A DNA stretch of 64,000 nucleotides from Candidatus Latescibacterota bacterium (GTDB lineage: Bacteria > Latescibacterota > UBA2968 > UBA8231): positions 980,631 through 1,044,630 of the forward strand of contig CBDCNM010000001.1 in the NCBI GenBank assembly GCA_965219385.1, written 5' to 3'. Shown here one piece after another: positions 8,486 to 54,077 of this stretch (positions within the stretch are counted from its first letter, which is position 1; each line of letters starts with the position of its first letter). A program made the translations under genes and the position numbers. The notes below the pieces were generated by a model, which saw only the letters and a program-made list of their open reading frames with translations, ran no database searches and was not told the origin of the DNA.

Positions 8486-9424
8486 TCAGGTAAAAAGCGC
8501 GCTGATTGAGGTTTCCTGATGGATTGCCTTGATGGCGCTGGCAAAAAGCGGTGCGACCGAACACACCTGTATCTTGGAGTTTCTGCTACCTGGCGTTAGA
8601 GGAATCGTATCCGTAATTGCAAGACATTCGAGGGCTGAGTCGTTTATGTGGTTTGCCGCATCTCCGGCCAGAGTTCCGTGTACACATCCGGCATAAATCT
8701 TGCTACATCCCCCCTCTCGGACGGCCCGAGTCCCGTCAAATATTGATTCTCCTGTGATAATTTCATCATCAAAAAAAATCACATCCCTGCCTTTTACATC
8801 GCCTATGACCCCATGTACCCGCATCTGTCCATCAAGCCCCCGCCGCTTGTCAATCACGACGAGGGGCAATCCCAATCGTTTGGCATACGATTCAGCAACC
8901 TTGGCACGGCCGATATCCGGGGCGGCGGCAACACAATTTTGGAGGTCCACTCTGGAATAATAAGCGCAAATGTTGGGAACGCCACTCAATTGATCCACCG
9001 GCATTCTACAAAAACCCATGATCTGCGGACTGTGCAGACTCATGGTCAAGATGCGATCAGTCCCAGCCTCGTTGAGCAGATCGGCCATCAAGCGACCCGC
9101 AACGGAAATGCGGGGTTCGTCCTTGCTGTCGGACAAAGCATAGGGATAATAGGGTAAAACCGCGGTAATCCGTCCGGCTGAGGCATACTTTAGAGCATCC
9201 AGGGCAATGAGGAGTTCCATCAGATATTCACTCACCGGGGGGCATGAAGTCTGGATGAAAAACACATCGCACCCACGCACATTCTCGCATATTTTAACCT
9301 TGATATTCTCGTTGCTGAAACGCACAAATTCAATCTGGCCCAGCTCCAACTCTAAAGCCTCACAAATACCCCGCGCCAGTGGCCGGTTGCTCTGACCAGC
9401 AAAAACCTTAAGGGGTCCGCTCAT
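8486..9424 (-). CDS. prs: Ribose-phosphate pyrophosphokinase, paralogue 1 (divergent)
   Basis: ENVRGCDVFFIQT, RITAVLPYYPY, DKRR, DDEIITG. Confidence 0.88.
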   Translation of the reverse strand: MSGPLKVFAGQSNRPLARGICEALELELGQIEFVRFSNENIKVKICENVRGCDVFFIQTSCPPVSEYLMELLIALDALKYASAGRITAVLPYYPYALSDSKDEPRISVAGRLMADLLNEAGTDRILTMSLHSPQIMGFCRMPVDQLSGVPNICAYYSRVDLQNCVAAAPDIGRAKVAESYAKRLGLPLVVIDKRRGLDGQMRVHGVIGDVKGRDVIFFDDEIITGESIFDGTRAVREGGCSKIYAGCVHGTLAGDAANHINDSALECLAITDTIPLTPGSRNSKIQVCSVAPLFASAIKAIHQETSISALFT

Positions 9425-9520
9425 CTTTACATTCTATTCTTTTCCTAAGTGGCTAGCCCCAGAGTTATATTGGACACACGATAAGCCCTATATTTTAGGG
9501 TCGAAAGGAGGGTGTCCCTC

Positions 9521-12371: not shown

Positions 12372-13328
12372 TTAATCAAGTAAACGGCTCACAGACTCCC
12401 CGTGGTGAATCGCCTTTATGGCCTCCCCTATCATTCGACCGACGGAAACCACTTCAATCTTATCGGTGGGTTTTTCCGCTGGAAGAGGAATGGTATTGGT
12501 GACGACAAAGGTCTCAATCGGAGATGCATCAATACGCTCGAGGGCATTTCCAGCAAAAACTCCATGGGTACAGCCGGCCAAAATACGCCGTACCCCCTTC
12601 TCTTTAAGGAGTTTAACTGCTTCCATCATGGAACCTCCAGTGAGGACTTCATCATCGAAAAGAAGGGCATCCTTCCCTTCTATATCTCCAATAATATTAA
12701 GTATTTCAGCCTGTTCATCATCACCGTGTCGTCTTTTGTCCATAATGGCCAGTGGCAAATCTATCCTGCGGGCGTAAAAACTCGCTTCATCTGCACTTCC
12801 AACATCCGGAGATACCACCACAGCGTTGTTTAAATTCTTGGTTCTCAGGTGATTGCAAAGCAGCCCAGTCGCCCAGAGCTGATCTACTGGGATACGAGAA
12901 AAAGCAGCAATCTGCGGAGAGTGCAAGGTCATAGTCAAGATCCGGTCCGCCCCAGCGGTCTCGAGCAGGTCGGCCATGAGCCGCGCTGATATCGAGATAC
13001 GGGGCTCGTCTTTCTTATCTGAACGCACATAGGGGAAATAGGGCAAAACAGCGGTGATCCGCCGGGCAGATGCATACTTGAGGGCATCGATCAGGAGCAA
13101 AAGCTCGATGAAATGGTCATTTACCGGGGAACTGGAAGTCTGCACCACAAACACATCGTCTTCGCGGACATTTTCCCGAACCTTGACTTTGATATTATCG
13201 TTGGGACTTCGCTCTATGCTCTGGCGCCCTGGCTGGATATCAAGGTATTCACAGATTTCGTAGACAAGCCCGGAATTGCTTGTACCGGCCATGACCTTTA
13301 GATAATTCTTCATTTCGGCAATTCCCAA
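12372..13328 (-). CDS. prs: Ribose-phosphate pyrophosphokinase, paralogue 2
   Basis: YFPYVRSDKK, LHSPQI, SPDVG, DKRR, DDEVLTGGS. Confidence 0.92.
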   Translation of the reverse strand: MGIAEMKNYLKVMAGTSNSGLVYEICEYLDIQPGRQSIERSPNDNIKVKVRENVREDDVFVVQTSSSPVNDHFIELLLLIDALKYASARRITAVLPYFPYVRSDKKDEPRISISARLMADLLETAGADRILTMTLHSPQIAAFSRIPVDQLWATGLLCNHLRTKNLNNAVVVSPDVGSADEASFYARRIDLPLAIMDKRRHGDDEQAEILNIIGDIEGKDALLFDDEVLTGGSMMEAVKLLKEKGVRRILAGCTHGVFAGNALERIDASPIETFVVTNTIPLPAEKPTDKIEVVSVGRMIGEAIKAIHHGESVSRLLD

Positions 13329-13422
13329 CCTTAAATTTCAAAAACGCCGTGAGGACATACCCAGAAGCCTGCGATCACCTTGTGCTGCTCCCTCCAATCT
13401 TCCCGGGGGTTGTCCTAATATC

Positions 13423-28093: not shown

Positions 28094-29542
28094 GCTCGAC
28101 TTTATCCATTTATGTAGCGTACGAGACGGTGTGTATCAAGCGGTTGAGTAGGCTTCGAGGGATTTTTATCAGGTCGTGTTGGTTGGGCAGGTTGGAAAAA
28201 GCCTGCCAGAGCCGTTGTCGGACCCAGGCCACGGCATCGGAAAAGGTGGGTTTTCGTTTGCCATACCAGGCCGTGGCATGGCAGGGGGAGGCGCTTTTGG
28301 GGGCCAGCCGATTGGCGATGAGGGCGACCAGACTAAACAAGGCCAAGATGACCGGCGTGGTCCGGGCAATGGCCCGCTCATTCCATTGGCGTTGGGTTTC
28401 CATGCCCAGATGGGCGCGGGCTTCCTCAAAGGTAGTTTCTACCGACCAGCGTTGGAGAAAATAGGTCAGCATTTGCCGAGGGGACAGACGCACATCGGTC
28501 GAGAGCAAGGCTTGGGGCGCGAAGCGGCCGGCCGGGTCTCGGATCAGCAGCCAGCGGAGGGGCACGGCGGGCAAGCCAGTGTGATACCACAGCGCCGTTT
28601 GGCTGTAGGTTTCCACTGTATAGGGGCCGGCGGCATACCACCGGTCCAGGGTGAGGGGGTGCCAAGGGGTAGTCGGATCGTTCAGGTGCTGCTGGAGGGT
28701 GGGCTGCCGGGCGCCTTTGCCGCGGGGGCGTCCCCGCGTGTGCGGCGTGCGGGTTGGTGGTGGGTCATACAGGGCCGCATCCAACCGCAAGCGGGTAATC
28801 AGCCCCACGTGGGGCCGAACCGCGTCGAGAAAGGCCAAGGCGGAGAAGGTGCTATCGGCGACCACGACCAGCCGGCGGGTGGGCAGCCAGCGCGCTACCA
28901 GCTTGAGCATAGTCTGCCCCCGTTGCAACAGGGTGAGGGGGGTGCGCTGGCGCTGAGTATAGTAGCGGGCCGACGGACACAGCACACTCATAAAGGGTAA
29001 GGCCCAACTTCGATCCGCCCAAGGGATAGGCGCTACCAGCATCAACGACAGCCAGCGCAAGCCGCTAGCCTTGACCAGGTGGGGCCCACTCGAGCGGACG
29101 GGATCCCGGTAGATGCCTCGGGCCCCAATCTGGGCGCCCCGGCGCCGCTCGATGGTCTCATCCAGGCCCAGGACCAGGGGCCCGTGGGGGGCAAAGGCGG
29201 CCACCAACGCCTGGAGGAGTAGCTTACTGCCGGCCAGGGGCGACCACACACAGCGGTTGAGGATCCGGTGGTAGGTTTGAAAGGTAGGCTGTTGGCTCAA
29301 GCCCAACACCTCCAACACGGCGCTGACCGTGCGTTTACCCGGGGCTAACAGCGCCCCGACCAACAGCGTCTGAGCCTGCGGCCAAACGCGGCTCGAAAAA
29401 AGGGGGGCAAAGGGCGACAAAATCGTTATTATATCTTTCGGCAGGGGGCTCATCGGTTTCTCCTGGGCTGTCGATGCTTGGATACCATCAACAGTACGGA
29501 GGATACCGGCCTCCTGCCATGCGCGTTTGGATAAAATCGAGC
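28094..29542 (-). mobile_element. IS701-like insertion sequence
   Basis: TIRs GCTCGACTTTATCCA / TGGATAAAATCGAGC with TA on both sides; single DDE transposase. Confidence 0.85.
28110..29453 (-). CDS. DDE transposase (IS701-like)
   Basis: GLDET, VADSTF, RWSVETTFEE. Confidence 0.88.
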   Translation of the reverse strand: MSPLPKDIITILSPFAPLFSSRVWPQAQTLLVGALLAPGKRTVSAVLEVLGLSQQPTFQTYHRILNRCVWSPLAGSKLLLQALVAAFAPHGPLVLGLDETIERRRGAQIGARGIYRDPVRSSGPHLVKASGLRWLSLMLVAPIPWADRSWALPFMSVLCPSARYYTQRQRTPLTLLQRGQTMLKLVARWLPTRRLVVVADSTFSALAFLDAVRPHVGLITRLRLDAALYDPPPTRTPHTRGRPRGKGARQPTLQQHLNDPTTPWHPLTLDRWYAAGPYTVETYSQTALWYHTGLPAVPLRWLLIRDPAGRFAPQALLSTDVRLSPRQMLTYFLQRWSVETTFEEARAHLGMETQRQWNERAIARTTPVILALFSLVALIANRLAPKSASPCHATAWYGKRKPTFSDAVAWVRQRLWQAFSNLPNQHDLIKIPRSLLNRLIHTVSYAT

Positions 29543-29554
29543 TAAGGATTTTCA

Positions 29555-30487
29555 ATGAAACTTCAAAGACTCGGGACCACGGATCTGCAGGTCTCTCCCC
29601 TCGGCCTGGGCACCGTGCAACTGGGCATGCCCTATGGCATTGGCCTGCTCCCTCCTCCCTCCGACATAGATTGTGCCCGACTGCTAAACCACGCCCTGGA
29701 GACAGGCATAAATTACTTCGACACAGCGCCAGATTACGGTCGCAGTGAAGAGGTCGTGGGCAAAGCCTTTGCCCATACCAACCCCAAGCCCATCATCGCA
29801 ACCAAATTGGCCCTGCGCAAGCCCCCCCTGCGAGGAGAGGCCCTGCGCCAGCATATCGAAGAATCCGTAGCCCGCAGCTTAAAACATCTGGGCCTTGAAA
29901 CCCTGGATCTGTTGCAAATCCATAACTCCGAGGGCTCTCTCTTGGTCCCCGAGCTCCTGGAGAACATGGACAACCTATCTTCAAAAGGAATAGTAAGACA
30001 CTGGGGGGCGACTACTTACTGGGAATCCGACGCCCTGGATACTCTGGCGATCCCTGGACGAATTCGGACCTTGCAAGTCGCGTACAGCCTGCTCGACCAG
30101 CGGCTTGAAAAAAGGCTCTTTCCCCATTGTAAAAAACAAAAAACCGCTGTGATATTGCGATCCATTTTTCTCAAGGGCGCGCTTTCGCATCGAGCCGGCA
30201 ACCTTCCTCCCGAACTGTCCGATTTGCGTCAGGAATCCCAAAAAGCCGGCCGGATCGCAGACGCAGCCGGAATCAGGCTACCGGCACTAGCCCTGCGTTT
30301 TGTCGCCTTTAACCCCCATGTCCAGATCACCTTGTTCGGCACCACGAGTATTGCGGAAACAAAAGCCAATACAGCCGCTTTCCAGGAGGGCCCTTTGCCC
30401 CTGGATGTAATAGAGCAATTGAACCACCTCAGAGTCGATGACGAACAAATGCTGAAACCAGTGTATCTCACACCAGGTTGGGCCTAG
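29555..30487 (+). CDS. Aldo/keto reductase
   Basis: GINYFDTAPDYGRSE, IATK, DLLQIH. Confidence 0.92.
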   Translation: MKLQRLGTTDLQVSPLGLGTVQLGMPYGIGLLPPPSDIDCARLLNHALETGINYFDTAPDYGRSEEVVGKAFAHTNPKPIIATKLALRKPPLRGEALRQHIEESVARSLKHLGLETLDLLQIHNSEGSLLVPELLENMDNLSSKGIVRHWGATTYWESDALDTLAIPGRIRTLQVAYSLLDQRLEKRLFPHCKKQKTAVILRSIFLKGALSHRAGNLPPELSDLRQESQKAGRIADAAGIRLPALALRFVAFNPHVQITLFGTTSIAETKANTAAFQEGPLPLDVIEQLNHLRVDDEQMLKPVYLTPGWA

Positions 30488-36434: not shown

Positions 36435-37724
36435 CTACCCCATGGGTTTTACCAGGGAAATGCCGTAACTCCCCGGGTCAATCCAAGAACCCAGACATTC
36501 CAGGATATCCTGGGTGGACAGGGCCTCGTGCGCCTTCAAAAAGTCAAACGGGTGTGCCCCCCGGCTCACCGCACTGTGCATCAAAGAGGCACAGCTTTCG
36601 ACCTGGTCAAAGTGTTGCACCAGATGCCCGTATGCCTTGCGCCTGGCACGCGGAAAATCTCTTTCTATCAGATCTCCTTTCCTGGCCTCGTGTATTTGTT
36701 CAATAATTGCTTCCTCCAGTTCCATGGGCCGGGGCACATCCCCACCCACCAGGCAGAATCCGAATTCTGGTTCGGCGTATACCTCACATCCAAAGCTCTC
36801 TACATCGATCAACCCATTCTCGTGATATCTGCGGTAGAAAATACTCGATGGTCCGAACAAAATATCCAGCGCCAACTCGGCGGCCAGTTCCCGGCGGAGC
36901 AGATCCACCCCCTTCACCTCCCCCCTCCGATCTTTGAACCCCAGGCACATGCGAGGCTGGACGATCTGGAGGCTGGACTCCTGAGGACCGGAGACTGGAT
37001 CCAGGGATTCTTTGACCGGTGGGCGCTTATACGGCAGACCATTGGCAAGTGCTCGTCGGCCGATAAAAGCCGACACCTGATCCAGCAGCCTTTTTGCTTC
37101 GACATCTCCGCTTACAAAAAGGCTCATATTTCCTGGGTGGTAGAAGGTCTGATGACACAGATCCAGGGAAGCAATATCGATTTGGCGGATGCTCTCCTGG
37201 GTTCCGGCCATGTCTACCGTGAGTGGATGTTCCCGGTACAAAGCCCGCAAGGTAGAAAAAAAGCTGACCCATTCCAGGCTATCGCTATACAGCTGAAGCT
37301 CCCTTGCTATAATCTCGCGCTCCCTTTGCACCCCTTCGACCATCAACTGGGGGCGAAGTACAAAACCCAACAACAGGTCTAAGCTTTGATCGAATCGGTC
37401 GATGCAGGAAAAAAATAGGCGGTGTTGGTAAAACTGGTATGGGCATTCACCTCAGCCCCGAGCGCCGTGAATAACTCAGCGATATCTCTTCCCGATCTTT
37501 CAAATACTCGATGTTCGAGAAAATGAGCTACGCCGTCGGGGACCTGGGTGTACTTTCCACTCCCAGGCAATTCAAAAATGCGGTCAATCGAGCCGTAGTT
37601 GACGGCCAGGATGGCGTGTTTACTACTCATTCCTTATCTTTGGCATAACGTAAAGATCAAGCCCGGCTGGTAAAACTGCATGATAGAAATGCTCAGCCAG
37701 CAATTCATTCACGATCTGTTTCAC
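36435..37724 (-). pseudogene. M16 peptidase, YmfH-like (HXXEH), two frameshifts
   Basis: Fragments GLDLYVMPK / NYGSID...AHFLEH...NAHTS / FYHPGNM; breaks near 37634 and at a T7 run near 37410. Confidence 0.8.
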
Positions 37725-37744
37725 AACCTGGATTGGCCCTTTCT

Positions 37745-39970
37745 TCAGTAAAATCGGACTATCCCCGGCCAAAGGCCGGGGCTTTTCTCCCGACTCGTGG
37801 CTCCGCCGCCGCGATTTCTAAAGCCCTCCCTACACCGCCCGCATTCATCCCCGCCCACAGGCCACAGGCCGGGGCATTCTGCGAGATTTTCGTAAAGGAA
37901 AAAAGTGGTGTCGAGTTTCACCTTCCGGGCTACATCGCTTACCTTTTCACAGGTCACGGTTTCGAGACTTTTCTCGAACTTGAAGCGGGATGGATGTGCC
38001 CCTACCAGGCTGTACTGGAGACAAAACCGCACCAGTCTTTCCCGATTGTCTTGCAAGGCCTGCAAGCGTTTTACAAGCAGACCCCGCGCCCACTCCAATT
38101 CGTCTGCATGGAGTCTGTTCCGAATCGAAGCTAATTGCTCGTTTATCTTTGCACAGACCGCCGGGTAGTCGTCCCGGTCTACGCCGGCACTAACAAACAT
38201 CAAGCCGCAAATGGGTTCGAGGTGGGACTCGATAAAATAGCACAGACCGGCCTCTTCCCGAACACATCTGAACAACTTCGAATGGACGTCCCCCCCCAAG
38301 AGGGCATTGAGTACTACCAGGGCGGGAAACTCCTCGTCGAGGATACTGATCCCGGTTCGGTACCCCTGAACAAGCTTTCCTTGATTTATTCCCTGTGATT
38401 CTCGAAATTCGCGGCAGCCGACTACATCTTTTGCACGCGGGACTCGCAGGTTGGATTGGGCAATTTTCCGTTCAGCCGGGAAAAGATTTTCGCACAATTT
38501 GACCAGCCGACTCCGATCCGCCCGTCCACTGATGAACACGTCTATGGGATTATACGTTAATAGTCTTTGGTGGAAGCTCAGTAAATTGGTGGCACTGATT
38601 CCCTGGAAATCGCACGGATCTCCCAGCATTGAAAGTCCGTAGGGTTCATCGCGACACATAGCCTTGATACAGCGGTGCTGGGCGTAAGCCATTTTGTCGT
38701 TGTAGAGTGAATCGATGTTTACTCTTAAGGCCTTTTTCTCCTGCTGCAGATAGTCCCGCCTGAATCCTCTACCTTCCAGGATAGGGTGGTAGAGAACCTC
38801 GTGGAGAAATTCGAATCCCCTGCCCAGCAGATCTTCTTTGTCATGCAGAAAGCACTCATCCACCACCTTTAGGGAAAGGTGGATCAACTGGCGATCGCCC
38901 AGTTGTTCCAAGTCGACGGAAAAGGATGCACCGTACATTTCGTCGACGCAGCGATTCAGGCTCTGCATGTCCGGCCATTGCCGGGTACCGCGTTCCAGTA
39001 GACGTCCTATCAAGGCCACGCGGGTGTTGTACTTTTTTTTGAGCAATGCCTGAACGAAAATATCCACTGTAGTGGATTTGTAATTCTGGATTTGGTGGTC
39101 GGGTAGCCGGGAAGTGTCACCACCTCCCGGCCCCCTAAGAACCGTGCGTGCGACTTTCACCGCACACGGCTCAAGCAGACGGCTTCTCTTCACCGTCGTG
39201 AAGTCCTCTGTTGGACGACCTCCGATCATGGGCCTTTCAGCCTCCAAGGTCTGCGTACCGGCCTGTTTCCCGGTATCTGAGCATCTCCTTGGATAAGTGA
39301 TCTTTGGGGCCTTCATGGTCCGTCCACCGGTTGCGCGTCAGCACCCTTTCGGGTTGGGTATGGCCCTATCTGGCGGGTTATGATTTCCCCGTGCCTTTCG
39401 GCGGCCAGCCTTCGCTTCTCGCAACATCCTGTTCCCCCTGAGGAGTTCGCCCTTCCTTGCGGTTGGGTTACTGGATCGGGACGATCCCGTCTCAGACCTC
39501 ATTGGGGTTTCGCTTTTCCGCATAAGTAAGATACAGCCAACGTAGGAGCCTACTATACGCCGGGGTCTGTGGTGTGCGCTCGGGGACAATAAAACTTCCC
39601 CTGTCACTTTTGGCGACCAAGACCATGAGAAATGTCTTTTTCACGTTTGACCCATTACGGCATTATCAGCCACGCTTCTACCGCTAACCTTTACGACGCT
39701 TACATAGGTTCACTTTCGTTCTCCCTATTGGCTTTTGCCTTGCCCTGGGTTGATTCGTGGCTACCTGCACATTAGGCTTTTTGTCTCTTGCTTCCAACCC
39801 TCCCGTTACCGGGAACGCAGGAGAGACCGGCAATTAACCTGCACACTGGTTAAGAATCACTAACTGCGTGATTCTACTCATCTTATGCGACTTAAAGCTC
39901 GCACTATATATAGGTTTATGCCGTTTTTCAGAACCAGGTTTTCAAAATCATCCTGCTCGAATTTCTGCAT
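37745..39970 (-). CDS. M16 peptidase, YmfF-like; spliced, exons 39905-39970 and 37745-39097
   Basis: Intron removal gives KNGINLYI|HQIQNYKSTTVDIF in frame; SKLFRCVREEAGLCY. Confidence 0.85.
37748..37891 (-). mobile_element. IS200/IS605-type MITE (PATE), 144 bp
   Basis: Subterminal hairpins GCCCCGGCCTGTGG... and GCCCCGGCCTTTGGCCGGGG; TTAC at both junctions; removal restores FLY-TGA. Confidence 0.75.
39098..39904 (-). mobile_element. ORF-less group II intron (IIB-like), 807 nt
   Basis: 5' GTGCG; DV GAGCCGTGTGCGGTGAAAGTCGCACGCACGGTTC; DVI hairpin ending CCCGAC; no RT ORF. Confidence 0.92.
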
Positions 39971-40093
39971 TTCTCCACTGCTTTACTGATATCACTACAC
40001 TTGCCCACAACCTAACATCCAATTTAATTTAGCTTTGCTCCCGGCCTGTGGGGGTTAGAGCGCCAAACCTGTAAAATCCACCTGTCGAGCTTA

Positions 40094-41961: not shown

Positions 41962-44837
41962 TTAGAAAGATTGTGAATAATCTCCAATTGGGATACAGGA
42001 GCACACCAGATTGCGATCCCCCAGAGCATTGTCGAGACGGGCTACCGCCGGCCAGAACTTGTGCTCTTTAAGCCAGGGGGCCGGCATGGTTGCCTTTTCA
42101 CGCGTATATGAATAATCCCAGTCCGAGGCTACCACCATATCAAGGGTATGGGGTGCGTTTTTCAGTATGTTGTCATCCTGGTCCAAGCCGTGGTTTTTTA
42201 TTTCTTCGATCTCTTCGTGGATGGCGATCATGGCCTCGCAAAAGCGGTCCAATTCAGCCTTGGATTCGCTCTCGGTTGGTTCTACCATCAAGGTACCAAC
42301 CACCGGGAAAGACACCGTTGGGGCATGGTATCCATAATCCATCAAACGTTTAGCCACATCTTCTACTGTAATCCCCGTTGTATCTTTTAAGCTGCGTAGA
42401 TCCAGAATGGATTCATGGGCGACAAAGCCATTTTTGCCCCTGTACAGAACCGGGAAAAACCCATCTAGTTTGTGAGCTATATAATTGGCATTCAAGATGG
42501 CTACTTTAGTAGCCTGCCGCAACCCCTCTCCCCCCATCAACTTGAGATAAGCCCAGGAGATCAACAAAATGACCGCGCTGCTCCAGGGGGCCGCGGACAC
42601 TGCCCCCGTCCCCTTCTTTCCTCCGGTCCGCACCACCGGATGAGTGGGCAGAAAATCCACCAGGTGGTCGGCTACGGCGATAGGCCCCATCCCCGGGCCC
42701 CCTCCACCATGTGGAATGCAAAAAGTCTTATGCAGATTCAAATGGCATACGTCCACCCCAATTTCGGCAAGCCGGGCAAGTCCGACCAGAGCGTTCATAT
42801 TGGCTCCGTCCATGTATACCTGTGCACCGCAATCGTGGACCAAGGCACAGACCTCTCTGATCTGCTCTTCAAAAACGCCGTGGGTAGAGGGATAGGTAAC
42901 CATGAGAGCAGCCAGGCTGTCCCGATGGTCTGTGGCCAGTCGACGTAGATCCTCCAGGTCAATATTGCCCTGATCATCACACTTCACCACCACGACCCTC
43001 ATCCCGGCCATGGTCGCGCTGGCCGGATTCGTGCCGTGGGCCGAAGCCGGAATCAAGCACACATCGCGATGGCCCTGTTGTTGGACTTGGTGATATTGGC
43101 GCACGACCAGAAGGCCGGTGTACTCGCCCTGGGCCCCGGAATTGGGCTGTAGAGAAACGCCGTTAAATCCGGTGATTTCTTTTATCATCTGGGATAGTTC
43201 GGCAAAAATTATCTGGTATCCCCGAGCCTGTTCAAGGGGTGCAAAAGGGTGCAGCTGGGCAAACTCTGGCCAGGTAATCGGCATCATTTCTGTAGTGGCG
43301 TTGAGCTTCATGCTACAAGAACCCAGCGGGATCATTGAAGTCGTCAAAGACAGATCCCTGGCCTGCAAGCGGCTCATGTAGCGCAACATCTCTGTCTCAG
43401 AGTGGTAGGTGTTAAAAACCGCATGAGTCAGATATGGACTCTGACGGCAGTCTTGTGGCGCCCAGTTCAATCCATTGATTGGTTCCAGATCCACAACCGC
43501 GAAATCGAGTTGCCCGCCGGCCAGGACTGTGAGGATATCTTCCAAATCGGCTGTGCTGGTAGTTTCGTCAAGGGTGATCCCCAACCCATCTTCTCCAAAA
43601 CAGCGGAAGTTCATCTGCTGGTTTCGGGCTCTTTGCAGGATTTCTTCTCGCTCGCTTTCTTCTACCTGCAAGCGCAGCGTATCGAAAAACCGGCGATGCA
43701 GGACGGTGTGCCCCAGCTTCAGACAGCCCTGTTCGAGGACGCGGACCAAAGCGTGAATGCGCTCTGCTATCCTTTTGAGCCCTTTGGGGCCGTGGTATAC
43801 CGCGTACATAGCGGCAACCACGGCCGGCAGGACCTGGGCAGTACAAATATTGCTGGTGGCCTTTTCCCGCTTGATATGCTGCTCACGGGTCTGCAGCGCC
43901 ATCCGCAAGGCAGCATTGCCCCGGGCATCCTTAGAGACGCCGATAACCCGGCCGGGAAGCTGCCGTTTGTAGGCCTGGCGAGTGGCAAAATAGGCTGCGT
44001 GGGGTCCTCCGTAACCCATGGGCATGCCCAGACGCTGGGTATTGCCCACTACGACATCGGCGCCAAACTCTCCTGGAGGGGTTAGCAAGGTAAGGCTGAG
44101 AATATCCGCCGCAACGGCAACCAGAGCTCGATGGTTATGCGCTTGCTCGCAAAACTCTCGGTAGTCGTAAATTGCACCATCCGAGGATGGGTACTGCAGA
44201 AGAGCCCCAAATATGGGAAGCTCAAAATCGAACTCACGGTGGTTGTCTACCACTACCTCCCATCCCCGGCTGTGGGCCCGGGTCTTGACCACATCGATGG
44301 TCTGTGGGTGACAATCCACCGAGACGAAGAAGGTGCGGTGTGGTTTTTTTTTTGCACGCTGTAGATCATGCTCATGGCTTCGGCCCCAGCGGTGGCCTCA
44401 TCCAGAAGCGAGGCATTGGCAATCTCCATACCGGTGAGGTCGATGACCATAGTCTGGAAGTTCAGCAGGGCTTCCAGCCTTCCCTGCGCGATTTCGGACT
44501 GGTAAGGGGTGTACTGGGTGTACCAACCTGGATTTTCCAGTATATTGCGTTGAATCACCGGGGGCGTGATACAATCGGCGTACCCCATGCCTATATAAGA
44601 GCGAAAAATTTTATTCACCGCCGCAATATCCTTCAGTTCTTCCAGCAGTTCGTACTCGCCTTTCCCTCTTTCCATCCGGAGATCTTCACGCATGCGGATT
44701 TGCGGTGGAACGGCACGATCGATCAACTCGTCCAGGGTGTTCACCCCCAGTTTCTCCAGCATCCGGGCTATATCGCCTTCCTCAGGGCCGATGTGACGGC
44801 GAGCAAATCCATCGGTGTATTTCCAGGCTTCTCTCAT
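41962..44837 (-). CDS. gcvP: Glycine dehydrogenase P protein, split by a frameshift at an A10 run (44344-44353)
   Basis: [14 protein letters not shown] in one frame; DCHPQT...HLNLHKTF in another; one added A joins them. Confidence 0.9.
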
Positions 44838-52625: not shown

Positions 52626-54077
52626 TTACTGTGCTCTGTATCTTTTGACCCCCTGAAGAATAGTCCGCCCACTAACCTTTAATATCCCCGTTATTCGGCA
52701 CCGCTACGAGCATGCCCATTAAACCCATTAACTGGCCGCCAACCAGAACCACAAAAAGAACAATCAGGGGGTGCAAATCCACACTTTTAGCCAGTACAAT
52801 GGGCTGGATAAGTAAATTGTCGATCAGCTAGATGATCACAAAGACGATCAACACATGCCAGACCATACCAATCCCTCCCCCTGTAGCCAGCGCCACGATA
52901 GCGGCAGATAGAATGCCGATCAACGGCCCCAGAAAGGGGATCATATTAGCCAGCCCTGCGACAATACCCACCGGCAAAGCATAGGGCAGCCCAACCAGCA
53001 GCAGTCCACCAACAGAAAGGGTGCCGACCGCAGTGGTAACCAAGATTAATCCACGGATATATCCGCCAATCTGGCCGTTAATCTGGTGCAGCAAGTTGAG
53101 GCAGAGTTCAAAATATTCATTGGGCACCAATTCTATCAGGCCATGAGTAATGCGCTTCCCTTCCTTTAACAAGAAGAAAGCCACAAAAGGCACGATCACG
53201 ACGAAGGTGATGCCCGAAAAAACTCCACCAAGGACTTCGGTTGTTCCCCCCAGGAGCTTTTTGGCCAAAGAACTTCCTTGTTCTTCGATCAGGGCAGAAA
53301 GGTTTAAATCCTCGCCCAGACCCGATTGCGGCCGAACCATCAGCTGTATCCTCTTCACCTCTTCGCTCAGGCGGGTGATGATGCTGGGGCCGGCACGCCC
53401 AAAATCGCCCCCCCCCTTGAAAAAACAAGGGTTTGCACCTGGACTGAATCCCTGTACCTCCCTTCCTCCCAGAACCAAAAATCAGGGGATTCTTCTCCTG
53501 AGCGAAGGGAATTGCCCTGCATCCGCAAGGTAAACGGCTCGGTCAAGGCCGGGCTTGCAATATTCAGACTGCCCTCTACAGGTTCGGTGCTCGAAGGTTT
53601 AAAGCGGAGCTTCAAAACCAGTTCTTTGGCCGGTTCGAGTTCGACCGGAAACCCAGGAGAATCTATCAGATAAAACGCAGAATGCTCGGGATCCACCCCC
53701 TTTATCCCCTCAATTATTGCGCTATCAGGACCTTTATTTAAAACAGTGACTTCCTGGTCCACCTCTTCCTGGACGAGAAACTGCTCGCTGAGTTCGATCA
53801 TCTCGGCCGTCAGCTTGGTACCGGCCTGGAAGGCCCCCAGCATTAAGCCGCTGAATACGAGAATGAATATGAACAGGATGCTGAGTACCCTGTTCACCCC
53901 CCTGCCTTCCAGGCGATCTACCAGTGGAGCCAGGACGTAAGAAAGCACAAAGGCCAGGGCAAAGGGAAGTAAAATGCCTTTAATTTTTAGAACAAACCAA
54001 AGGACAACCCCCAAAACGGCTATGCCCGCAATGAGCTTGACTGGATTCCCCAACGGGGAGGATTTTGCCTGTTCCAT
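52626..54077 (-). pseudogene. AI-2E (PerM) family transporter with Ig-like insertion; two frameshifts plus in-frame TAG
   Basis: YVLAPLVDRLE, FFLLKEG, IPFLGP, II*LIDNLLIQP, LHPL. Confidence 0.8.

Follow-up and report, generated by a model that had tools for sequence, protein, structure and literature searches.

The stretch of DNA analysed here, referred to below as the window, comprises 64,000 nt from a Candidatus Latescibacterota bacterium (contig CBDCNM010000001.1, positions 980,631 to 1,044,630). On its minus strand, at 39904..39098, lies a group II intron of 807 nt that interrupts a gene of the M16 peptidase family; the ORF list of the window shows no open reading frame (ORF) of reverse transcriptase (RT) size inside it. 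The intron begins with GUGCG (39904..39900) and ends in CTACCCGAC, with GAC at 39100..39098, so that both boundaries conform to the GUGYG and AY consensus. The Rfam model of domains V and VI (DV/DVI), RF00029, aligns over its full length at 39174..39098 (minus strand) with 68.5 bits versus a gathering score of 40 (E 2.3e-11), a match that is far beyond chance. In the 5′ to 3′ direction of the host gene, the locus is built as follows, with the basis of each assignment in brackets:

39905..39970, minus strand: exon 1, 22 codons (MQKFEQDDFENLVLKNGINLYI), ATG at 39970..39968 (ORF list, contiguous orthologue N-termini)
39098..39904, minus strand: group II intron, ORF-less, 807 nt, called copy A below (Rfam, consensus fold, profile homology to ~100 metagenome relatives)
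39515..39899, minus strand: domain I, predicted, intron positions ~6-390 (RNAalifold closing helices, columns 7-31 with 391-409)
39437..39509, minus strand: domain II, predicted (consensus fold)
39332..39428, minus strand: domain III, predicted, containing the class-wide motif AACCCGAAAGGGTGCTGACG (consensus fold, motif scan)
39174..39330, minus strand: domain IV, ~155 nt, no ORF (consensus fold)
39314..39316, minus strand: internal ATG at intron position 589, 12 nt into domain IV, opening 73 codons into exon 2 (ORF 37745..39316)
39139..39172, minus strand: domain V, AGC triad, GAAA loop (Rfam; identical in copy A, its siblings B and C, and the relative L080)
39101..39135, minus strand: domain VI, bulged A at 39104 (Rfam, consensus fold)
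37745..39097, minus strand: exon 2, 450 codons, Peptidase_M16_C domain, no HxxEH (ORF list, domain search)
36435..37772, minus strand: partner M16 gene with HFLEH, just downstream, in three ORF pieces by two frameshifts, one at a T7 run (ORF list, domain search)

A consensus fold of four copies of the intron, computed with RNAalifold, comprises six domains and 192 pairs, of which 54 show compensatory changes; this covariation support is partly circular, because the fold was predicted from the same alignment of copies. Domain V carries the AGC triad and bulge, and domain VI the bulged branch A, 7 nt before the intron 3′ end. Domain IV, in which a mobile intron would encode its RT/maturase, holds no recognisable remnant of one: blastx against the RT proteins of three relatives returned nothing below E 0.5, and blastn-short returned only noise. 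When copy A was compared with 51 relatives, it departed from them at 13 of the 148 columns conserved to 90% or more (the relatives' median is 3, their range 0-16, and the ORF-bearing relative L183 departs at 2), and a part of these departures is compensated within helices. An independent RNA-derived contig matches 39143..40014 with zero mismatches or gaps. The Rfam D1-D4 models were tried for class assignment and set aside, the match of group-II-D1D4-7 at 39761-39854 being sub-threshold (24.9 bits versus a gathering score of 34). A first-pass annotation, made from the sequence alone, had described an 807-nt intron with a GTGCG start, DV/DVI and an AC end but no RT, and this description is confirmed throughout.

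Exon 2 opens at 39097 (HQIQNYK...) in the frame of exon 1, and the insertion is therefore in phase 0. The parts resembling exon 1 and exon 2 are contiguous at every one of the orthologous loci compared (13 of 13), which come from other genomes of this taxonomic family; the nearest orthologue (L023, 60% identity) is uninterrupted across the junction and reads MSKFEQGDFSSLCLKNGISLHF followed directly by HQTSIYKSTTVDIF. This contiguity confirms the intron and its phase-0 position, and with it the in-frame joining of a 22-codon exon that had been proposed. The joint product of both exons has the M16 fold (Peptidase_M16_C, E 4.6e-21). The HxxEH zinc-binding motif of the active enzymes was not found in this product and the partner gene has HFLEH, from which we conclude that the host gene encodes the non-catalytic member of an M16 pair; its earlier description as a chromosomal protease gene thus holds for the family, not for a protease in its own right. 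A search with this query did not find the pair in 5 of 18 genomes of the family, and of 86 stretches that a pattern search for orthologues matched in JGI metagenomes none encodes a relative.

Between both M16 genes lies a GC-rich palindromic repeat (GCCCCGGCC...GGCCGGGG, window 37745-37880). The exon 2 frame passes through it, its last ~47 codons lying beyond the stop of the orthologues, and segments of this repeat also occur at C1:1320920 of the same genome (82%) and in genome G011. Three genes of the window are split by frameshifts, namely gcvP (44240-44420, A10), an AI-2E transporter gene (53360-53500, G9/T6) and the M16 partner (37380-37640, T7), the partner's second break not being at a homopolymer run. 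A decaying operon was considered and dropped: the breaks in gcvP, in the transporter gene and one of the partner's two sit at homopolymers. Given this coincidence, assembly indels are likely, and the frameshifts of the window are probably of that kind, although the genes may be pseudogenes.

The intron is one of a family. The genome (5.81 Mb, two contigs, completeness 93.96%) matches its sequence in 11 places, with about seven ORF-less or broken copies:

Copy A, window 39904..39098, minus strand: ORF-less, full-length, in the M16 gene
Copy B: full-length, ORF-less, 84% identity, starting with GUGUG
Copy C: full-length, ORF-less, 77% identity, with a degenerate 5′ end and the hairpin of exon-binding site 1 (EBS1) deleted
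Copy D: deletion derivative
Copy E: interrupted by insertion sequence (IS) transposases
Copy F: fragment, 95% identical to copy A
Remaining matches: 3′ remnants

Only copy A is located in a long ORF; of the others, B, C and E fall between genes, and D is found close to where a frame ends. Each of the five DV/DVI matches of the genome falls in one of these ORF-less or broken copies. The IS-interrupted copy, at C2:682779-686936, is cut twice by elements with DDE-type transposases, a case of nested mobile elements. This long copy was examined as a possible RT-bearing sibling and rejected, its length coming from the IS transposases and not from an RT.

The pairing of these copies with their exons separates copy A from its siblings. 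EBS1 was found by covariation in a hairpin loop at intron positions ~267-286, at loop positions 4-9. The sites in copy A and the intron-binding sites (IBS1 and IBS2) opposite them in exon 1, together with the EBS1 pairings of the siblings and of relatives from metagenomes, are:

39624..39633, minus strand: EBS1 hairpin loop AUUUCUCAUG, register UCUCAU at 39625-39630 (loop fixed by 6/6 pairings in siblings and relatives)
39905-39910, minus strand: expected IBS1 UAUAUA, the last 6 nt of exon 1 (exon end)
39686..39690, minus strand: EBS2 AGGUU, 5 bp with exon AACCU (pairing, covariation with siblings)
39912-39916, minus strand: IBS2 AACCU, exon positions -12 to -8 (pairs with EBS2)
Sibling B: EBS1 UCAAAG, exon CUUUGA, 6/6, -4.5 kcal/mol
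Sibling D: EBS1 GUUUAU, exon AUAAAC, 6/6, -2.8 kcal/mol
Sibling E: EBS1 UAUUCC, exon GGAAUA, 6/6, -1.3 kcal/mol
Metagenome relatives L158, L201, L172, L179 and L219: same loop, 6/6

In copy A, UCUCAU pairs with UAUAUA at only 2 of 6 positions, and the duplex is calculated at +1.9 kcal/mol. Three siblings thus have three different EBS1 sequences, each fully paired with its own exon, the pattern of a family mobilised in trans; several other relatives were examined for this pairing and gave no clear match. EBS2 of copy A does pair, and it has a G opposite C where the siblings have an A opposite U. Folding of domain I had been proposed as a check, with missing EBS-IBS pairing as the sign of a dead insertion, and its outcome is divided: the EBS2 pairing exists, the EBS1 pairing found in the siblings does not. 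UAUGUA at intron positions 199-204 and other hexamers were rejected as EBS1, as they lie in a conserved helix and show no covariation with exons. Positions 1-7 of the EBS1 loop are also complementary, 7/7, to GAGAAAU at 39969..39975 (minus strand), 66 nt upstream of the splice site, which is the tail of the ribosome-binding site plus the AU of the start codon of copy A's host gene; this complementarity is possibly due to chance, for which a rough estimate is 3-5%.

We searched the genome for a protein that could serve the family in trans. There was no GIIM domain (best match E 0.16), and with the group II RT/maturase model TIGR04416 (cut-off 300) the three RVT_1 proteins of the genome, all without GIIM, reached 131.5, 35.4 and 62 bits. 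When the RT of L183, the ORF-bearing relative nearest to the intron, served as query, only an RT of 303 aa was retrieved (E 5.8e-11). This free-standing RT (C1:868203-869132) has no maturase domain and carries an IGNxxSQ-type motif, which we take to be typical of the RTs of diversity-generating retroelements. Two further RT-domain proteins (frames of 652 and 605 aa, at C2:3320648-3322603 and C2:3657553-3659367) show weak Drt3/Drt4 matches and may be defence RTs. Neither the trans-acting maturase nor the RT-bearing siblings that the first-pass annotation had envisaged were found in this genome, and a related RT/maturase elsewhere in the genome, as in Thermosynechococcus elongatus, is missing here, an absence that is not absolute in a genome 94% complete.

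To place the intron among its relatives, we scanned one genome per species for the DV sequence, which gave at least 113 stretches; 80 loci (L042-L121) were fetched in full and compared. Among the matches listed is L080, an ORF-less relative of 813 nt from a Latescibacterota metagenome-assembled genome, which has this single intron copy and lacks a GIIM domain. In 60 related genomes the intron DNA was not detected, save for one DV-DVI remnant. A scan of metagenomes with a 20-nt motif of domain III gave 113 loci, most of them homologous across domains I to III (nhmmer). The distance from the motif to domain V was within 400 nt, hence ORF-less, at 16 loci, 400-1200 nt at 1 locus, and at least 1200 nt, leaving room for an ORF, at 31; the other 65 were too short or had no DV found. 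The ORF-less share of the informative metagenome loci of this intron class is therefore 16/48.

A tree of domains I to III was built from 54 rows: copies A, B and C, the relative L080 and 50 distinct metagenome sequences of near-full coverage. Rows with the same sequence were collapsed into one, and loci that did not span profile positions 95-565 were left out. An ORF-less clade unites copies A, B and C with L080 and the metagenome sequence L198 (SH-aLRT 93), and the sister of this clade is the ORF-bearing L183 (SH-aLRT 96). The tree requires at least five changes between the ORF-bearing and ORF-less states. The protein of L183 combines RVT_N, RVT_1, GIIM and HNH domains and reaches 349 bits with TIGR04416; among solved structures it is closest to 6me0_C (E 4.5e-114), presumably from the ribonucleoprotein of the T.el4h IIB intron of Thermosynechococcus. 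To judge from this sister protein, the intron would belong to a T.el4h-like (IIB-type) lineage, which we assume to be the chloroplast-like (CL) class.

RNA from the locus was sought in four sponge metatranscriptome runs of one study, which were available as contigs and thus form a weak test in which rare spliced forms are invisible. The intron body lies under exact contigs in all four runs at a depth of 10-14, and the flanking exons at a depth of 0-4; such unevenness speaks against an origin from DNA carry-over. Contigs span the unspliced 5′ junction in two runs and the unspliced 3′ junction in one. The junction TATATA/CACCAA, which RNA data had been expected to reveal if the intron splices, was not seen: no contig in the four runs joins 39905 to 39097, and as most of exon 2 is uncovered, this does not show that splicing is absent. 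Intron RNA accumulates, and an excised intron and a stable decay product both fit. Between 78 and 94% of the sampled words of the locus also occur in six further runs (3 studies, type unstated). In the same four metatranscriptomes the domain V region (39109-39219) reaches a summed contig depth of ~480-1210 with many different loose ends, and many distinct group II introns with the same DV seem to be expressed in the sponge community.

The ATG within the intron had been noted as an in-frame bypass start. Its 73-codon frame into exon 2 is real; the bypass is not borne out. The ATG and its context are shared by copies B, C and E, L080 having TTG instead, and the frames that open there close after 20 codons in B, 26 in C and 7 in L080. 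Upstream of the intron 3′ end, the frame flush with it stays free of stops for 80 codons in A, 36 in B, 29 in C and 48 each in L080 and L198. Among 20,000 random positions and frames on the contig, 32% are open for at least 73 codons, so a frame of this length lies within what chance produces. The RT of the ORF-bearing relatives L067, L072, L090 and L183 starts 27-57 nt into domain IV; it is its position that marks the ATG as a candidate vestigial start, since no RT remnant is detectable in the domain. The ATG is better read as chance or as a leftover of the RT start region.

We consider it probable, though not with great confidence, that copy A is non-autonomous and has been stranded at a non-cognate site, that it splices poorly or not at all, and that the ATG within it is incidental. 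Its lineage would have lost the RT/maturase gene long ago, giving rise to a non-autonomous ORF-less family whose elements would move only when a related intron supplied its protein in trans. The family may have spread in this way to several sites in the genome, EBS1 changing from site to site. The helper would since have been lost from the genome, leaving copies that appear to be decaying, being cut by IS elements, deprived of the 5′ end and EBS1 hairpin, or reduced to fragments. Copy A sits at a site where EBS2 alone pairs with the exon. Because maturase and EBS1-IBS1 pairing are both missing, poor or no splicing is the most likely outcome. Translation of unspliced RNA from the native start, which meets a stop 8 codons into the intron, would end there. 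The structured intron RNA is transcribed and accumulates. The open frame from the ATG would follow from the phase-0 insertion and the GC-rich sequence and would not have evolved as a bypass.

Several observations weigh against this interpretation, and they bear on an alternative that we regard as a serious one, if unlikely: that the intron can splice in vivo, either as a self-splicing element or helped by a host factor, that its removal is precise, and that a normal M16 subunit is made. A precedent exists in C.te.I1, which, according to passages of a 2015 review by Zimmerly and Semper, self-splices in a genome without any gene for an intron-encoded protein (IEP; PMC4424553). Copy A appears to have an intact ribozyme core, with canonical ends, a domain V identical to that of its siblings, a bulged A and compensated changes in helices, and the compensated pairs across the ORF-less clade (54/192) imply long selection on the fold after loss of the ORF. 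Copy A nevertheless departs from the conserved columns of the class far more often than the median relative (13 versus 3). Both exons are intact and conserved, exon 1 being identical to the nearest orthologue at 15 of 22 positions; this is uninformative if the insertion is recent, which the 95% identity of copy A to fragment F led us to consider. The copy-specific change in EBS2, which covaries with the exon, suggests on sequence grounds some adaptation to the site. In contrast, EBS1 and IBS1 form no stable duplex, although every well-placed relative pairs at 6/6. Intron RNA exceeds the exons ~4-fold in 4/4 runs, as expected of an excised intron that accumulates, the 5′ junction is left unbridged in two runs, and a contig ends at 39905, a single base beyond the 5′ end of the intron. 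Against this stand the lack of a ligated-exon contig, the presence of unspliced junctions and the near absence of cover over exon 2. Finally, a second genome with a member of the clade (G061) likewise has no GIIM domain.

It is rather doubtful that the ORF-less clade as a whole is a ribozyme-only lineage, its fold under selection and its splicing free of any intron-encoded protein, so that self-splicing acts as a gate on the M16 pair. The EBS1 loop might, on this proposal, additionally mask the ribosome-binding site in unspliced RNA.

A helper maturase that was missed, and that splices the family in trans, is improbable. At a completeness of 93.96% it could sit on a missing piece or a plasmid, which also counts against the stranded-copy interpretation, or it could be a divergent RT such as that of 303 aa, which with 131.5 bits on TIGR04416 comes nearest to a group II RT in the genome; related IEPs are documented, in passages on T. 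elongatus, to splice ORF-less introns in trans (PMC2882425). The assembly, however, consists of only two contigs, so that repeats are resolved, the 303-aa RT lacks a GIIM/X domain, no DV/DVI match lies outside the ORF-less or broken copies, and the EBS1 mismatch would hamper splicing of copy A regardless. That unspliced RNA is translated from 39316 into a variant of the M16 protein whose 73 N-terminal residues the intron encodes, as the first-pass annotation had suggested in proposing two isoforms, is barely credible: although copy A alone has the long open frame before the 3′ splice site and the ATG is present, the ATG with its context is a family feature found at non-genic copies whose frames close early, such frames are common here, the ATG lies just past the predicted basal stem of domain IV with a weak Shine-Dalgarno-like sequence upstream, the variant would lack the conserved N-terminal strand encoded by 13/13 orthologues, and the 73 codons resemble no RT; the mechanism does not look real.

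The case matters because a whole ORF-less family occupies a genome in which no maturase was found, with a clade mate in a second maturase-free genome. If copy A does not splice, it illustrates cleanly how a stranded non-autonomous retroelement disrupts a gene; if it splices, it would be the second natural case of maturase independence in a bacterial protein-coding gene. Were the ribozyme-only proposal true, maturase-free group II introns in bacterial coding genes would be less exceptional than the textbook case. With 16 of 48 informative loci ORF-less, surveys based on RTs may under-count non-autonomous or ribozyme-only forms.

Elsewhere in the window, a DDE_5 / DDE_Tnp_1 transposase ORF of 560 aa (28113-29792) lies among housekeeping genes, and two paralogues of ribose-phosphate pyrophosphokinase (8489-9433 and 12375-13337) lie on the same strand within 4 kb.

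Bacterial group II introns without an ORF are described, in the passages of the 2015 review that treat them, as rare and nearly always found alongside a related IEP, C.te.I1 being the sole IEP-free case among the more than 1,500 bacterial copies then known (PMC4424553); ORF-less expansions in some genomes have been reported in part of a further source (PMC8919778). A limited literature search turned up no paper on the group II introns that sponge-associated bacteria carry. As described in that review, organellar ORF-less introns, which host factors splice, resemble the present one in lying in protein-coding genes whose expression would depend on trans factors, but they are vertically inherited and positionally conserved (PMC4424553), whereas this intron is absent from 13/13 orthologues and, one DV-DVI remnant aside, from 60 related genomes. 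C.te.I1 of Clostridium tetani is closer, being ORF-less, between coding exons and in a genome without an IEP-related gene; it has been shown to self-splice, using alternative 3′ sites and a shifted 5′ site (PMC4424553, in part). Copy A, in contrast, is known from sequence and RNA contigs, and the element is multi-copy with canonical GUGCG and AC ends.

The organism of TeI3, Thermosynechococcus elongatus, provides another parallel; the RT of the closest ORF-bearing relative of our intron best matches 6me0_C, presumably T.el4h. The ORF-less family of T. elongatus is described in passages of Mohr et al. 2010 as stemming from one deletion and as being spliced and mobilised by driver IEPs; good EBS/IBS pairing is there the mark of retrohoming, and poor splicing is expected of copies with a bad match (PMC2882425). 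Going by the same passages, T. elongatus retains several driver RT genes, of which there are none in this genome, TeI3 keeps N- and C-terminal RT remnants, none of which is recognisable in domain IV here, and the poorly matched copies of T. elongatus are mostly intergenic, whereas here it is the gene-borne copy whose IBS1 pairing is poor (PMC2882425). The two share several features: both are multi-copy ORF-less families derived from an RT-bearing intron, of IIB type in T. elongatus and presumably here, both have a short domain IV in which the former start region is retained, and in both differing EBS sequences are matched to differing sites, implying mobility in trans after loss of the ORF (PMC2882425, in part).

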